This document shows positions 22,765 to 40,829 of a DNA stretch of 40,829 bases, in pieces (the stretch's first letter is position 1; every line of letters starts with the position of its first letter). This DNA is from Escherichia phage P483, in sequence record NC_028822.1, one strand, 5' to 3'. The notes beneath the pieces are model-generated. The model saw nothing but the letters and a program-made list of their open reading frames with translations, searched no databases and had not been told where the DNA came from. The translations under genes were made by a program, and so were the position numbers.

Positions 22765-23181
22765 TTAAAATGTAGATTTGCGGTAGCCCATGAAGTTCTT
22801 CGGGTCAATCACACGCAGGTTCTTGTGGTTCATCTTGTGGTACTGAATACCAGCGACTGTACCCATTGCGTCAATACGTGTCACACGGGAACACCAAATG
22901 TCAGTCCCTTCGACCTTACGGTCATACCAAATGTTTGCGTTGCTGGTGGAGGTACAGAAGTCCCCAACCTTGATGTGGGTCATCTTGTCTGCATCGAAAG
23001 TCTGCATACCAACGCTACCACACTTGGCTACTGGTTTGACCCATTTACCGTACTTGCGGGTCCACCCTAAGTTCTTCAGGATGTGGACAGCGGAGTCACG
23101 AGCACATTCATGCTCTTTAACGTCTGCCAGTTCTGCTTCCAGTTTAGCGATTTCAGCTTCGATTACGGTACGATTACGCAT
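22765..23181 (-). CDS. Hypothetical protein (T7 gene 4.7 position)
   Basis: 138 aa (T7 gp4.7 is 135 aa); ATG 14 nt after the phi4.7 start site. Confidence 0.7.
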   Translation of the reverse strand: MRNRTVIEAEIAKLEAELADVKEHECARDSAVHILKNLGWTRKYGKWVKPVAKCGSVGMQTFDADKMTHIKVGDFCTSTSNANIWYDRKVEGTDIWCSRVTRIDAMGTVAGIQYHKMNHKNLRVIDPKNFMGYRKSTF

Positions 23182-23189
23182 AGTATTGT

Positions 23190-23212
23190 TCTCCCATTAG
23201 TGAGTTGAATAG
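23190..23212 (-). promoter_or_regulatory. Phage RNAP promoter phi4.7 (divergent class II type)
   Basis: Minus strand reads CTATTCAACTCACTAATGGGAGA; A instead of G at -11. Confidence 0.65.
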
Positions 23213-27880: not shown

Positions 27881-28163
27881 AGCACTTGTCCTTATGTTTC
27901 TCGAACAGTTCACCATAGAACCCAGCTTTCGCCATGTCCTTCTCTAAGAATGCCAGTTCAGATTTCTTACCAGCACGTAGGCGATACTTAAGGATGTTCC
28001 CGTAGCAATACCCTTTGAACTGTTCACGGGTCATCGACCGGGCAATCACTTCGATAGCCTCAATGTCGTCAAACAACATATAGTGGCTCGGAGTCCGAAC
28101 GCCCTCTATATCTTGTGGTTGTTTGTGGTCTTTCTCCCACGCATCACCATCTAGCAGTCCCAT
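27870..28163 (-). CDS. Hypothetical protein (T7 gene 1.7 position)
   Basis: 97 aa, SD AAGGAGG; start overlaps the stop of the upstream gene (TAATG). Confidence 0.6.
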   Translation of the reverse strand: MGLLDGDAWEKDHKQPQDIEGVRTPSHYMLFDDIEAIEVIARSMTREQFKGYCYGNILKYRLRAGKKSELAFLEKDMAKAGFYGELFEKHKDKCYDY

Positions 28164-28426
28164 TAGAACACCTCCTTGATACGTGCAATGACCAGACGGA
28201 CTTTAGGGAAACGCGTGACGAGAACCGGGATGAAAGGCCGGGAGCCAGTGGTCGCTTCTTTATATAAGCCAGTGGTGATTACAGCGTGAACACGGGGTGC
28301 TAACTCAATGGTCGAACCAAGCACTTTAGGGATGACTGCGTGTTTCTCAGAGGCCAGAACCGTCGAGCGGTCAGCACCACGAGCCGAAAAGATACCATTA
28401 GATTTGTTGAAGTGAAGTCTTAACAT
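28163..28426 (-). CDS. Hypothetical protein (T7 gene 1.6 position)
   Basis: Start assigned to the second ATG (28426) because the phi1.6 start site falls inside the first ATG (28441) and the transcript 5' end GGAGGA provides the SD. Confidence 0.6.
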   Translation of the reverse strand: MLRLHFNKSNGIFSARGADRSTVLASEKHAVIPKVLGSTIELAPRVHAVITTGLYKEATTGSRPFIPVLVTRFPKVRLVIARIKEVF

Positions 28427-28433
28427 AGTTGTG

Positions 28434-28456
28434 TCCTCCATAGGTGAGTCGTATTA
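28434..28456 (-). promoter_or_regulatory. Phage RNAP promoter phi1.6
   Basis: Minus strand reads TAATACGACTCACCTATGGAGGA. Confidence 0.75.
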
Positions 28457-28534
28457 ACAATCAGGCCAGCAGTTGTCATCAATGATAACGAGAGCAAAGG
28501 TGGCAACAATGATAGCAACAATTAGAAATAGCAT
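28454..28534 (-). CDS. Small hydrophobic peptide (T7 gene 1.5 position)
   Basis: 26 codons, MLFLIVAIIVATFALVIIDDNCWPDC; its SD GGAGGA is the 5' end of the phi1.5 transcript. Confidence 0.45.
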   Translation of the reverse strand: MLFLIVAIIVATFALVIIDDNCWPDC

Positions 28535-28541
28535 GAGGTTG

Positions 28542-28564
28542 TTCCTCCATAGTGAGTCGTATAG
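28542..28564 (-). promoter_or_regulatory. Phage RNAP promoter phi1.5
   Basis: Minus strand reads CTATACGACTCACTATGGAGGAA. Confidence 0.75.
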
Positions 28565-28598
28565 AAACGCAAAAAGGCCAGCCCACGAAGGACTGACC
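28565..28598 (-). terminator. TE-like intrinsic terminator for host RNAP at the end of the early operon
   Basis: Minus-strand RNA GGUCAGUCC-UUCGU-GGGCUGGCC (9-bp stem, two G-U) followed by UUUUUGCGUUU. Confidence 0.7.
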
Positions 28599-28604
28599 GT
28601 TTGT

Positions 28605-29093
28605 TTATGATAGTGCTTCATCACGGGCGGCTATCGCCTCGTCAAGCGTTTTGTGGTAGGAAACATGCCTAGCACCATTCCTCCTGATACAGACAGTATA
28701 TAGTTCCCTGTCATTCCTCTTAGAGATGTGCTTCAATCCCAGCTTGTTGGTCGTGAATGTACCTTTGTTCTGGTTGTTAACAGCACAAGTAACCACCCTA
28801 AGATTCTCTATGAGGTTGTTACCTTTGTTTCGGTCTATGTGGTCAACTTGTAGTCCTTCAGGTATTGCACCATTTATTAGTTCCCAAATTACCCGATGGA
28901 CTCGTAGGTGATGTGCCACTCCGTTGACCCTCACACATAATACCCAATAGCCAGCCTTATTCAAGTATCCTACTGGCTTACCGTTGGGCTTGGAGAGGCC
29001 ACTAGGAGCCTCCCTGTTTACTTTAAATCTTTTCTTTAGGATTGTCCTCAGTTCCTCGGAAGCAGGAGAATGAGGGATGCCGCAATGACCCAT
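28605..29093 (-). CDS. HNH homing endonuclease with AP2-like DNA-binding domain
   Basis: 162 aa; HNH motif region VDHIDRNKGNNLIENLRVVTCAVNNQNKG and AP2-like YTVCIRRNGARHVSYHKTLDEAIAARDEA; start overlaps the last 70 nt of ligase. Confidence 0.75.
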   Translation of the reverse strand: MGHCGIPHSPASEELRTILKKRFKVNREAPSGLSKPNGKPVGYLNKAGYWVLCVRVNGVAHHLRVHRVIWELINGAIPEGLQVDHIDRNKGNNLIENLRVVTCAVNNQNKGTFTTNKLGLKHISKRNDRELYTVCIRRNGARHVSYHKTLDEAIAARDEALS

Positions 29094-30105
29094 CGCTTGT
29101 TTCCTCCATGTAGTTTACTTGACACTGCCAGCCCTGATAAGGGTTAACCCAATCACTCTCAGTTCTTACATTTAGGATGTTTGTAGCATCAAAAACGTTA
29201 TTGGTAAACTCATCCATCAACGCTTGGCTAATGTTGTTGGCAGAGACTACGCGACCGGACTCAAGGAGAACCTCGAAGCCAATCACTTTACCTTCGTTAG
29301 CCAGACCCGGAGTACCCCAATTGAGTCCCACAATGACACCATCAGCTTCACACTCAGGCTTCATCTTCCAGTAGCCAGACTTCTTGCCACGCATGTAGAA
29401 GCCCAGAGGGTCTTTGACTACCAGACCTTCATGACCATCGGCACGGGCTTTCTCATAGAGGGCATTCAGTTCTACCATATCGTAGACCTCGTAGCTCTCA
29501 GAGATGTCCCATTCGATTTCAGGGAAGTGCTCACGCAGCACTGGCAGCATAGCCTTAACGTGCTCGCGCATCAGTAGGTTCATCACTTCGTAGGTCTCAC
29601 CGGAGACCATAGAGTCAAACGGCATGACACCATAGAGGATAACCTTTAGTTTCTCAGTGTCTAGGTGGAATGGAATCTTACCATCAACCGTGAAGTCACC
29701 ATTCTTGTTCTTCTTGAGAGGGACACCAGCCACATCATTGTGAGCCAGTAGGTTGTCCGTCTTGACCCACTTGGTACGCAGGAGGCCAGACCCTGTGTTA
29801 AAGTCCACGCCTTTGACCATCAGTTCACCATCAAGCATGAAGCCATCAGGGAAGATACAGCGGTCGTCTTTCAGGAGCATCTCCCAGCGCTTGTCGTACC
29901 CGTTGAGATGTGACAGAGCAGGAATCTCTTTAGAGACACGAGAGAGCCACAATGAGTCAGCCGTATTGTCAACTACAATGTTACCACGAACGCCATCATA
30001 TTTAATGTCAGCAATCAGGTAGCCAGCTTTGTCGAGAGCTTTATTAACGGCAGACTCAACGAATGATACAGCTTTATGTGGATTTGTCTTGAATGTGATT
30101 TCCAT
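29023..30105 (-). CDS. 1.3: ATP-dependent DNA ligase (T7 gp1.3-like)
   Basis: Start at internal ATG 30105 with SD TAGGAGT; KYDGVRG adenylation motif; 360 aa; strong similarity to T7 ligase as recalled. Confidence 0.95.
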   Translation of the reverse strand: MEITFKTNPHKAVSFVESAVNKALDKAGYLIADIKYDGVRGNIVVDNTADSLWLSRVSKEIPALSHLNGYDKRWEMLLKDDRCIFPDGFMLDGELMVKGVDFNTGSGLLRTKWVKTDNLLAHNDVAGVPLKKNKNGDFTVDGKIPFHLDTEKLKVILYGVMPFDSMVSGETYEVMNLLMREHVKAMLPVLREHFPEIEWDISESYEVYDMVELNALYEKARADGHEGLVVKDPLGFYMRGKKSGYWKMKPECEADGVIVGLNWGTPGLANEGKVIGFEVLLESGRVVSANNISQALMDEFTNNVFDATNILNVRTESDWVNPYQGWQCQVNYMEETSDGSLRHPSFSCFRGTEDNPKEKI

Positions 30106-31375: not shown

Positions 31376-34027
31376 TCAGGCAAAAGCGAAGTCTGACTTG
31401 AGGATTTCTTGGAGGTCGAGAGCACCTTTAGCTGGCATCTCAGGCATCTTGTCAAGCTGTGACTCGTGCAACTGCTCGGCAAATTGCTCATAGAAGTCTG
31501 CGAGTACATCGTTTTCTTCGTAAGTGTTGACCATCGTTTCACGCACTGCTTTAAACAGGTTGCCAGCATCAGCAGGGATAGTACCAAATGAGTCGTGAAT
31601 AAGTGCAAAGGATTCCACACCGTATACCTCATTGGAGCGCACTACAGTCATTCGCAGGTGGCTACCGTCCATTGAGTGAACAAAGTTAGGTGCGATGCCT
31701 GACTCCTGCTTACGTGCGTCAATTCCGCTATCCTTGTTGGTGTTCACGGTAGGCTGCAAACGAATCTGCCCCAAGAACATCAGGTTCAAACGAGTCTGTA
31801 CTGGCTTCTTGTATTCCTGCCAGACCGGGAAGCCATCAGGAGTTACCCAATGTACCGCGCAGCGCTTGCGGAGAACCTCTTTAGTCTTCTTGTCCTTGAC
31901 TTCAGCAGCTAGGAGTTTAGCCGCAGACTTCAGCCAGTTCATTGCTTCAACCGCAGCGACCACAGTCACTGTTACCGATTCCCAAATCAGTTTAGCCATA
32001 TAGCCAGCCGCTTGGTTCGGTTGAGTGAACATCAAGCCTTTACCATCGTCGATAGCTGGCTGAATGGTGTCCTCTAGCACTTGGTCACGGAAGCCGTACT
32101 CCTTGGACCCGTAAGCCAACGTCATGACCGAACGCTTAGTGACCTTGCGAGTCACACCGTAGGCCAGCCACTGACCAGCTAACTCTTTCGTTCCCAGCTT
32201 GAGCTTCTCAGTGATTTCACCAGTGTCCTTGTTTGTCACTGTTTCCACTTCGTTATCAGTGCCGTTGATTACCGCTTCGCGGAGCATCTCGTTCACACGT
32301 TCGGCAACGATGCGGTAGATGTCCTGTACTTCCTTGCTTGGCAGCAGGTTAACAGCGCGTCCACCTACTTCATCACGAAGCATTGCAGAGAAGTGTTGAA
32401 TACCAGAGCAAGAGCCATCGAACGCCAGCGGCAGAGAGCAGTTGTAGTTCATACCGTGGTGTTGCACACCTGCATACTCAAAGCAGAATGCGAGGAAGCA
32501 GAACGGAGAGTCTTGTTCAGCCCACCAAGTGTTAGCAATAGGGTCAGCCGCAACGCTCATGATGTTCTCGTGGTTGTCCTCAATGAACTTGATGCGTTCT
32601 GCAAAGTCCACCTTGTCCACACCAGCAGTGTTTGCACCGTGAATCTTCAGCCAGTAGTATCCATCAACACCGATTGGTTTACCTTTAGCGAGCGTTAACA
32701 GACCCTTGGTCATGTCGTTGCCTTGCGGGTTAAACATCGGTACAGCGTAGACACGACCGCGCCAGTCCATGTTCATAGGGAACCAGATAGCTTTAAACTG
32801 TGCGAACTTGTTGGCTTGCCCTAACATGAACTCCATGCTCATACGACGAGACACGCGAGCCTTCTCCTTGCGGTAGATTGCGGAGGCCGCTTTCTTCCAT
32901 GCTTTGAGTGCCGCTTCGTTCGTGTCGATGTCTTCAGGTTTAACCGGAAGTTCACCACGTTCGAGAGCAGGTACATCTTCAACCGGGCAATGCTTCCAGT
33001 TCACAATCTCGTTGACCACTGCCAGAACCTTCTTGTTAATCTTCCAAGGAGTATTCTGTGCGATGTTAACCGCCTTGTAAACTTCAGGCATATGCACGTC
33101 GTTGTAACGCTCAAGTCCCTTCTTGGAACCAGTGCGAACCAGAGAGAGAGGCTTGCGACCAGCAGCCCAATAGCCACCACCAACCGGAGAAGTCCAAGGC
33201 TTCGGAGGGACCACACAAGGTTGATACATTGGAGCGATTGCAGCCAGTGCACCAGCACGTTTAGATAACAGGTCAACGTATTGTTCGGTTAACTGGATGT
33301 ACTCACCATCCTTCTCAACGTTACCAGCAAACGGTCGGTGTAACTCAACGAGACCAGTAGACCCAATGAGCAGTTCCAACATACGTACACCAACGTGGAT
33401 TGCTTCTTCAGGTGTCCATGTGGTCCACTTGGTTTGCAGTTGACCAGCATCTAACATCTTGCCTTCTACTGCTTGCATGAATGCCTTCTTGTAGACGATA
33501 CCTACGCGCTTGTTTAGTGCTTCCTGTACGTGATTCTTAAAGTGCTTCGCTTCTTCGTCACGAATGCGACCGAAACGCAGTTCATCTTCAATGCTGCGAC
33601 CAATCTTAGTTGCGACCGCTTGCAGGTTGGTGTATTCCTCTTTGGTTAAACAAGCCAGTGTGACCTTCAGTGTGATGAAAGCAGCCGCTTCAGGTGCAAC
33701 CTTCTGTACCAGATTATAGGCCACTGGACGCTTACCGCGCTTAGATTCCACTTCAGTGAACCAAGTGTTCCACGCCTCGATAAACTTCGGTGCGAGGGAT
33801 GACAGGAGAGGTTTAGCCACTGCGTTGTCACCGAACTCACCCGCTTTGATTTGACGCTCCATTGCCTTAAGGAAACGCTTCTCGCCCTCAGTGTGCGCTT
33901 CGTGTTCTAACTCAAGCTGAGTAGCAGCAAGCTGTGCGCCGTAATGGTCAGCCAGAATGTTGTACGGCTGGATTGCGTTAGCGATGTCAGAGAAGTCATT
34001 CTTTGGTGCATTGATTACGTTAGTCAT
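31376..34027 (-). CDS. 1: DNA-directed RNA polymerase, single subunit (T7 gp1-like)
   Basis: 883 aa, identical in length to T7 RNAP; long stretches match as recalled, including the specificity-loop region RKRCAVHWVTPDGFPVWQEYKKP and QPTVNTNKDSGIDARKQESGIAPNFVHS. Confidence 0.97.
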   Translation of the reverse strand: MTNVINAPKNDFSDIANAIQPYNILADHYGAQLAATQLELEHEAHTEGEKRFLKAMERQIKAGEFGDNAVAKPLLSSLAPKFIEAWNTWFTEVESKRGKRPVAYNLVQKVAPEAAAFITLKVTLACLTKEEYTNLQAVATKIGRSIEDELRFGRIRDEEAKHFKNHVQEALNKRVGIVYKKAFMQAVEGKMLDAGQLQTKWTTWTPEEAIHVGVRMLELLIGSTGLVELHRPFAGNVEKDGEYIQLTEQYVDLLSKRAGALAAIAPMYQPCVVPPKPWTSPVGGGYWAAGRKPLSLVRTGSKKGLERYNDVHMPEVYKAVNIAQNTPWKINKKVLAVVNEIVNWKHCPVEDVPALERGELPVKPEDIDTNEAALKAWKKAASAIYRKEKARVSRRMSMEFMLGQANKFAQFKAIWFPMNMDWRGRVYAVPMFNPQGNDMTKGLLTLAKGKPIGVDGYYWLKIHGANTAGVDKVDFAERIKFIEDNHENIMSVAADPIANTWWAEQDSPFCFLAFCFEYAGVQHHGMNYNCSLPLAFDGSCSGIQHFSAMLRDEVGGRAVNLLPSKEVQDIYRIVAERVNEMLREAVINGTDNEVETVTNKDTGEITEKLKLGTKELAGQWLAYGVTRKVTKRSVMTLAYGSKEYGFRDQVLEDTIQPAIDDGKGLMFTQPNQAAGYMAKLIWESVTVTVVAAVEAMNWLKSAAKLLAAEVKDKKTKEVLRKRCAVHWVTPDGFPVWQEYKKPVQTRLNLMFLGQIRLQPTVNTNKDSGIDARKQESGIAPNFVHSMDGSHLRMTVVRSNEVYGVESFALIHDSFGTIPADAGNLFKAVRETMVNTYEENDVLADFYEQFAEQLHESQLDKMPEMPAKGALDLQEILKSDFAFA

Positions 34028-40424: not shown

Positions 40425-40829
40425 TTACTTCTCCTTCTTAGCTTGCATTTCAGTTATTGTATTTTGGAGCGCCTTAATCCACGCATCCCCTCTTTGAGTT
40501 ACTCCGATAAGACGCTTACTAAACTCTTCGTCAAGTTCGGCTCGACCATCAACGAGGCATCCACCATTAGCTTGGAGTTCTCGTGTGGTGGCTGATAGTT
40601 TGACGCGCAAGCGCTTACCATCGTTACGCAAATCATTAATGACCCTATCAGTGCTGCCCTCCAGCGCCGCAAGGTCTTCTTGGTATTGTCGTGAGATTTC
40701 GTTGATAGCAGCTTGTTTATCCTCAGTCGCCTTAACTTTCTTAACGTACTCATTGTGCACCTCCTGTTCCCATTTAGTGTTAGCTTTGTCATAGCCGTGG
40801 TTATACGCAAGGGTAACACCCAAGGCAAA
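40425..40829 (-). CDS. 18.5: i-spanin Rz (T7 gp18.5-like), 3' part; the 5' end lies beyond the window end (equivalent to 1..265)
   Basis: Continuous with the copy at the window start; resembles T7 gp18.5 as recalled. Confidence 0.8.
   Translation of the reverse strand, partial: FALGVTLAYNHGYDKANTKWEQEVHNEYVKKVKATEDKQAAINEISRQYQEDLAALEGSTDRVINDLRNDGKRLRVKLSATTRELQANGGCLVDGRAELDEEFSKRLIGVTQRGDAWIKALQNTITEMQAKKEK
40499..40753 (-). CDS. 18.7: o-spanin Rz1 (T7 gp18.7-like), embedded in Rz in the +1 frame
   Basis: ATG 40753 with SD GGAGGTG; MSTLRKLRRLRINK...LIGSLMICVTMVSACAS (lipoprotein signal and Cys) ...SLMVEPNLT resembles T7 gp18.7 as recalled. Confidence 0.8.
   Translation of the reverse strand: MSTLRKLRRLRINKLLSTKSHDNTKKTLRRWRAALIGSLMICVTMVSACASNYQPPHENSKLMVDASLMVEPNLTKSLVSVLSE
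40604..40829. repeat. 226-bp exact duplication of window positions 1-226 (circular-permutation overlap, not a biological repeat)
   Basis: Direct comparison of window start and end. Confidence 0.95.

Follow-up and report, generated by a model that had tools for sequence, protein, structure and literature searches.

Three promoters of Escherichia phage P483 (NC_028822.1; the window, i.e., the whole stretch of DNA analysed, comprises 40,829 nt) lie so close to the genes behind them that the bases predicted to be transcribed first are also the Shine-Dalgarno (SD) sequence of the next gene. These sites, phi1.5, phi1.6 and phi4.7, located before genes 1.5, 1.6 and 4.7, are probably functional class II (middle) promoters of the phage's own T7-type single-subunit RNA polymerase, packed in minimal intergenic gaps, with a transcript start that doubles as the SD. 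The overlap of promoter and SD is already known and is neither novel nor surprising, since T7 has the identical layout and the same three promoters are annotated in BA14. This prior knowledge rests on the GenBank annotations of T7, T3 and BA14, and the layout of T7 promoters and gene starts was reportedly presented by Dunn and Studier in 1983. In the literature searched, no explicit wording was found that T7 phi1.5 and phi1.6 overlap their ribosome-binding sites.

Megablast searches with the region and with a 24-kb stretch placed P483 in the genus Berlinvirus (Autographiviridae, Studiervirinae), among T7-like/BA14-like phages; BA14, PYPS50 and 285P are ~92-93% identical to it across ~95% of the query. 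All long ORFs of P483 are encoded on the minus strand, including one for the RNA polymerase, covered by matches whose annotation in BA14 and PYPS50 is DNA-directed RNA polymerase or gp1. Bases 1-226 are identical to bases 40604-40829, thus the P483 sequence is circularly permuted or circularised and comprises 40,603 unique bases; this 226-nt duplication falls among the late genes and not at the physical ends of the genome. The features discussed below are collected in Table 1.

Table 1. Positions of promoters, SD sequences, genes and neighbouring elements in P483 (window coordinates) and of the corresponding promoters in T7 (NC_001604 coordinates).
Feature	Position	Strand	Details
RNA polymerase ORF	31376-34027	minus	883 aa
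Intrinsic terminator in TE position (early, host RNA polymerase)	28576-28598	minus	9-bp stem GGTCAGTCC...GGGCTGGCC, then TTTTTGCGTT
phi1.5-position promoter	28542-28564	minus	CTATACGACTCACTATGGAGGAA (-17 to +6); homologue annotated in BA14, Kvp1 and ETEP21B
SD of gene 1.5	28544-28548	minus	GGAGG, -1 to +4 of phi1.5; 9 nt, then ATG
Gene 1.5	28454-28534	minus	26-aa hydrophobic peptide MLFLIVAIIVATFALVIIDDNCWPDC; residues 1-26 match PHROG 10145 profile positions 1-26 of 26, E = 2e-17
phi1.6-position promoter	28434-28456	minus	TAATACGACTCACCTATGGAGGA; +1 = G28439
Upstream in-frame ATG (start of longest ORF)	28439-28441	minus	-2 to +1 of phi1.6; not the real start
SD of gene 1.6	28435-28439	minus	GGAGG, +1 to +5 of phi1.6; 8 nt, then ATG 28426
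Gene 1.6	28163-28426	minus	87 aa, BC10 family; starts at second ATG
phi4.7-position promoter	23190-23212	minus	CTATTCAACTCACTAATGGGAGA; +1 = G23195; 23-mer identical in BA14 phi4.7
Gene 4.7 homologue	22765-23181	minus	138 aa; ATG at +15; residues 1-134 match PHROG 4023 profile positions 1-134 of 134, E = 1.5e-54
TAA stop/promoter overlaps	30219-30217 (phi1.3), 28456-28454 (phi1.6), 27430-27428 (phi2.5), 25755-25753 (post-gene-3.5), 16272-16270 (phi9)	minus	TAA at -17 to -15
T7 phi1.5	+1 7778, ATG 7791		GGAGGT start; +1 to ATG GGAGGTACACACCATG
T7 phi1.6	+1 7895, ATG 7906		GGAGAC start; +1 to ATG GGAGACACTATATG
T7 phi4.3	+1 13341, ATG 13352		GGAGAC start; +1 to ATG GGAGACACACCATG
T7 phi4.7	+1 13915, ATG 13927		promoter CTATTCGACTCACTATAGGAGAT; GGAGAT start; +1 to ATG GGAGATATTACCATG

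A mismatch scan with the T7 consensus revealed 16 phage-RNA-polymerase promoters in P483 (consensus TAATACGACTCACTATTGGGAGA), all of them on the coding (minus) strand. The weight matrix was trained on 13 of these, with phi1.5, phi1.6 and phi4.7 held out, and a promoter match covered 23 bp, from -17 to +6, including the specificity core at -12 to -5. The held-out promoters scored 28.9, 19.9 and 26.1 bits, respectively, compared with -2.8 bits for the top non-promoter site of the coding strand and 4.4 bits for that of the opposite strand; the gap to the background exceeded 20 bits for each of the 16 matches. The matches at phi1.5, phi1.6 and phi4.7 are far beyond chance. The core CGACTCAC is intact in phi1.5 and phi1.6, and phi4.7 carries CAACTCAC. 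Each of the three sites not only fits the consensus but is also co-directed with its gene, in a phage that has an ORF for the cognate polymerase, and occupies the position of a promoter of T7 and BA14.

What sets these three promoters apart is the distance to the start codon, which is found at +14 (phi1.5), +14 (phi1.6) and +15 (phi4.7); no other of the 16 promoters has a gene beginning 16 nt or less from +1, and in the remaining 13 the leader measures 35 nt or more and includes an SD of its own. With ~55 genes in 40.6 kb, i.e., one start per ~740 nt, and a window of 5 nt, we estimate that ~0.1 such coincidences would be expected by chance, against three observed (Poisson P ~2e-4). At the phi6.5 position (18882-18850, minus) an in-frame ATG at +16, opening a 95-aa ORF, precedes a likelier start at +58 that has an AAGGAG SD and gives 81 aa; this ATG may be another trap for annotation by the longest ORF. 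The upstream ends of the promoters can be shared as well, as in 5 of the 16 the TAA at -17 to -15 doubles as the stop codon of the upstream gene (Table 1), and the annotations of BA14 and T3 show this 3-nt overlap too.

Behind the 23-mer of phi1.5 follow caacctc and ATG 28534 (whole stretch CTATACGACTCACTATGGAGGAAcaacctcATG), behind that of phi1.6 cacaact and ATG 28426 (TAATACGACTCACCTATGGAGGAcacaactATG), and behind that of phi4.7 acaatact and ATG 23181 (CTATTCAACTCACTAATGGGAGAacaatactATG). The GGAGG or GGAG at the predicted transcript start is the only SD available for the three genes. An SD was taken to be at least 4-5 nt complementary to the 3′ end of 16S rRNA (CCUCC) and placed 5-10 nt upstream of a real gene start; GGAGG precedes the ATG by 9 nt at gene 1.5 and by 8 nt at gene 1.6. 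For gene 4.7 the SD is the GGAG at +2 to +5 of phi4.7 (23194-23191), 9 nt before the ATG. GGAGG is the customary strong SD of P483 and such spacing is usual in this genome, as 23 of the 37 GGAGG on the coding strand have an ATG 4-11 nt later, and at strong genes elsewhere in P483 the gap from GGAGG to ATG is roughly 5-9 nt. The sequence-only reading had proposed that the 5′ end of these transcripts is itself the ribosome-binding site, and the start codons at +14, +14 and +15, the SD located 8-9 nt before each ATG and the lack of any other SD bear this out for the predicted 5′ ends. Its extension to the promoter at 23190-23212, which was called similar to those at the 1.5 and 1.6 positions, also held, with GGAG of the transcript start as SD and the ATG at +15. 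The distance of 8-10 nt that it gave between the initiating hexamer and the ATG has to be corrected, since the actual gap behind GGAGGA or GGGAGA is 7-8 nt.

The proposed mechanism would begin with the halt of host transcription at the terminator in the TE position, which ends 11 nt upstream of phi1.5 and is annotated at the equivalent place in BA14, Kvp1, ETEP21B and T3. The phage polymerase would then initiate at phi1.5, phi1.6 and phi4.7, and would also read through from phi1.1 and phi1.3, the upstream phage promoters at 30743 and 30219. According to the two-domain view, a T7-type promoter has one element for binding (-17 to -5) and one for initiation (PMC11617373), and a gapless +1 register was used because the distance from the binding element to the start is fixed for T7-type polymerases (PMC11617373). 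The P483 polymerase would thus bind from -17 to -5, melt the DNA from -4 to about +3 and initiate with GTP at that fixed distance. The first transcribed purine run (GGAGGA or GGGAGA) would serve as the SD of the next gene, its first 5-6 bases pairing with the 3′ end of 16S rRNA, and translation would initiate 8-9 nt beyond the SD. Primary transcripts would carry a 13-14-nt leader that consists of SD and spacer and nothing else, and the same SD would serve the longer read-through transcripts from upstream phage promoters. Promoter and SD make naturally compatible demands, since a G-rich purine start is what the polymerase favours and GGAG is already part of the consensus GGGAGA. At phi1.6 the packing is complete, the TAA of gene 1.5 supplying -17 to -15 and +1 to +5 coinciding with the SD of gene 1.6; the ATG at the TAT/G junction (-2 to +1) would be an accident of the promoter sequence. 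A search of 28100-29200 for host sigma-70 promoters gave three weak 9/12 matches against 1.6 expected, none of them usefully upstream of gene 1.5 or 1.6, and this candidate was rejected.

The layout is not peculiar to P483. In T7, phi1.5, phi1.6 and phi4.7 precede the same genes as the three P483 promoters, the binding element TAATACGACTCAC is common to both phages, and both phi4.7 promoters have the unusual upstream CTATTC. The annotated transcripts of T7 phi1.5, phi1.6, phi4.3 and phi4.7 start with GGAG and reach the ATG at +12 to +14, so that the initiating bases are the SD as in P483. The two phages differ at -4 to -1, where T7 has TAAA or TATA and P483 has the consensus TATT, just TAT at phi1.5 and CTAT at phi1.6; furthermore, T7 phi4.3 adjoins its gene, whereas the promoter at the phi4.3 position of P483 (23867) has a 49-nt leader. 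In BA14 (EU734171) phi1.5, phi1.6 and phi4.7 are annotated 7-8 nt before genes 1.5, 1.6 and 4.7, at the same distances from the start codons as in P483; the 23-mers of phi1.6 and phi4.7 are identical in both phages, and that of phi1.5 differs at -13 and -12 alone. The P483 genome is ~93% identical to that of BA14 overall and has an extra HNH gene beside the ligase gene, and no difference touches the feature. In T7 gene 1.4 is located between TE and phi1.5; in P483 an HNH endonuclease gene instead precedes TE. This ORF (162 aa, 28605-29093, minus; Pfam HNH_3, E = 7e-18; PHROG 99), flanked by the DNA ligase gene and the early terminator, has no counterpart in most relatives, in which 50-64% of a 1.5-kb query was covered, and probably represents the insertion of a mobile homing endonuclease.

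T3 (NC_003298) resembles P483 in that its phi1.5 directly follows TE; it starts with AGGAGA, and the ATG comes 8 nt after +6. Unlike in P483, T3 phi1.5 (CATTAACCCTCACTAACAGGAGA) has a binding element of T3 specificity (ATTAACCCTCAC). The promoter at the 1.5 position thus tracks the polymerase specificity of each phage, which argues for its function. T3 has no phi1.6, and its gene 1.6 is preceded by TAAGGAGACAACATCATG alone, which suggests that the SD is the older of the two, with the promoter lying between the stop codon and the SD. Of 69 IMG/VR loci that encode gp1.6 relatives, 13 are Berlinvirus-type (L014-L026) and 53 K11-type. Promoter and SD precede gene 1.6 in 12 of the 13 Berlinvirus-type loci, the exception, L025, having kept the SD and lost the phi1.6 core, and in the 53 K11-type loci the SD alone (AAAGGAGC) is found at the same distance before gene 1.6. 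Judged by these sequences, the SD is the constant element, and in T7- and BA14-type phages the promoter fits precisely between the preceding stop codon and this SD. Contig L025 (IMG/VR UViG_3300034358_000001) also has, at about 440-600, part of the phi1.5 core duplicated in tandem (CTATACGACTCT-ATACGACTCAC).

The same distribution can be read in another way, which we consider unlikely, yet the strongest of the competing explanations: the promoters fire, but an SD at the very 5′ end is a poor entry site for ribosomes, and the overlap reflects genome compaction and not functional coupling. The promoter-proximal RNAs would then mainly serve downstream genes (1.7, 2, 2.5 and further), and read-through RNAs, in which this SD is internal, would account for most of the translation of genes 1.5, 1.6 and 4.7. 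It speaks for this explanation that T3, the K11-type loci and L025 retain the SD of gene 1.6 with no promoter, so the role of the SD is independent of the promoter, and that phi1.1 and phi1.3 are present; since read-through from these two covers genes 1.5 and 1.6, the main template for them is not necessarily the promoter-proximal transcript. In addition, a 4-bp GAGG/CCUC hairpin (-4.9 kcal/mol) is possible in the phi1.5 leader. This hairpin, however, is weak, is not significant against shuffled sequences and is broken in Berlin and L023. A 13-nt leader is long enough for the SD/anti-SD duplex, and model mRNAs in structural work on the 30S subunit have 2-4 nt between the 5′ end and the SD. It also speaks against this explanation that T7, BA14-type phages and T3 have kept the layout, which occurs at several independent positions. 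A regulatory RNA structure in the short leaders was considered as well and rejected, as the hairpin of the phi1.5 leader was the only one found; the first 60 nt of each of the three predicted transcripts were no more structured than shuffled controls (z-scores of +0.5 to +1.3), and no Rfam family matched anywhere in the P483 sequence.

At phi1.5 only 3 nt (TAT) separate CTCAC from GGAGGA, and in the gapless register +1 is the second G (28547), with -1 (28548) also a G. Given this spacing and a rigid register, the RNA would begin with GAGGAA unless the polymerase starts at -1. The 3-nt spacing occurs in 17 of 19 distinct Berlinvirus sequences, and the other two (L008 and L009) have 4 nt. Annotators place the register 1 nt apart, gapless in BA14 and Kvp1 and shifted in ETEP21B. 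The phi1.5 transcript may accordingly start at 28548 or 28547, a predicted position that is ambiguous by 1 nt. GGAGGA had been named as the initiating hexamer of both promoters; this stands for phi1.6, where it occupies +1 to +6, while phi1.5 contains the hexamer but has its rigid +1 on the second G. One may ask if the one-base-shorter spacer that phi1.5 has in BA14-type phages (TAT, not TATT) has a consequence of its own, the primary RNA beginning with GAGGAA, or with GGAGGAA on a slip to -1, so that the 5′ end trims or exposes the SD and translation depends on the promoter of origin. We regard this as doubtful; if true, promoter-proximal and read-through RNAs would not be translated alike in their first cistron, and weak class II initiation would be tied to a trade-off with SD strength. 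A G at -1, just 3 nt from CTCAC to the G run, is also seen in the class II promoters at 25755-25733 (CACTATGGGAGGA) and 23867-23845 (CACTAAGGGGACA), both on the minus strand, and for the former the annotators of BA14 moved the register by 1 nt.

Departures from the consensus raise the question whether phi1.5 and phi1.6 could be non-functional or vestigial promoter copies, whose proximity to start codons has no effect on expression. Both are off-consensus in the initiation region: the initiation element of phi1.6 is the poorest of the 16 (-4.2 bits; CTAT at -4 to -1, GGAGGA at +1 to +6) and that of phi1.5 contributes 8.6 bits; the former and the G at -1 of phi1.5 imply that both promoters may be weak. 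The annotations are uneven too, as Kvp1 and FE44 list just one of the two promoters each, and a note in the FE44 record doubts the relevance of the phi1.6 site owing to its proximity to the downstream gene. Nevertheless, the phi1.6 binding element (-17 to -5) reaches the maximum of 24.1 bits with a perfect 13/13, that of phi1.5 scores 20.3 bits, and the T7 homologues are recorded as T7 promoters with a defined +1. The phi1.6 23-mer is identical in the annotated promoters of BA14, FE44 and ETEP21B, and the ACTCAC core of phi1.5 is retained in all 19 distinct Berlinvirus sequences. Their alignment shows conservation of the promoter cores, SD and ATG, whereas the adjacent coding sequence, in the middle of gene 1.5, is variable. 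Finally, in T7 evolved with a polymerase of altered specificity phi1.5 was changed in four of four lines (PMC6171733), which indicates strong selection on this promoter and argues that it matters. Loss of function is therefore very improbable. Within gene 1.5 itself, the hydrophobic N-terminal part varies freely across Berlinvirus, and the 3′ end (28454-28480, minus; GATGACAACTGCTGGCCTGATTGTTAA, encoding DDNCWPDC) is near-invariant in nucleotides and still recognisable in T3.

At the 1.6 position the overlap also bears on which protein is made. The longest ORF encodes 92 aa (MEDTT followed by MLRLHF...) from the ATG at 28441-28439, and, as had been predicted, +1 of phi1.6 falls inside this codon, G28439 being its last base in the gapless register. 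No SD is present upstream of ATG 28441, the MEDTT extension has no counterpart among the gp1.6 homologues compared, and the upstream ATG is missing wherever -4 to -1 is not xTAT, i.e., in T7, T3, pEa57, LPST144 and K11-type phages. The 87-aa product of ATG 28426, on the other hand, is matched from its first residue by Pfam BC10 (residues 1-68 against profile positions 1-64 of 65) and PHROG 1777 (residues 1-87 against 1-86 of 86), is 100% identical to the annotated gp1.6 of BA14 and aligns from residue 1 with gp1.6 of T7, T3, K11 and Berlin. Taken together, the profile starts, the identity to BA14, the alignments, the missing SD and the missing upstream ATG in relatives imply that ATG 28426 starts gp1.6 on any transcript, in line with the register of +1 and with the earlier choice of the second ATG, which had been limited to the promoter-proximal transcript. 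That the phi1.6 transcript is instead leaderless and begins at the A of ATG 28441, giving the 92-aa form, as the in-frame ATG at -2 to +1 and the long 279-nt annotation in ETEP21B might suggest, can be dismissed as wholly improbable, since it requires a start 2 nt upstream of normal and with ATP, against a +1 on G and a true start codon at +14, from which the family profiles and homologues begin.

The overlap described here is a textbook property of T7-group class II promoters, could be seen for decades in the sequence and annotation of T7 and opens no new question; what it offers is of use for reading the genomes of this group. In annotation, the start of gp1.6 should be taken as ATG 28426 and not as the longest-ORF ATG 28441, the long form being annotated in ETEP21B at least. 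Promoters that touch start codons are not to be dismissed as spurious, contrary to the note in the FE44 record. In T7-group phages three codes are overlaid in ~27 nt, as the promoter has the stop codon of one gene at -17 to -15 and its first transcribed bases are the SD of the next gene.
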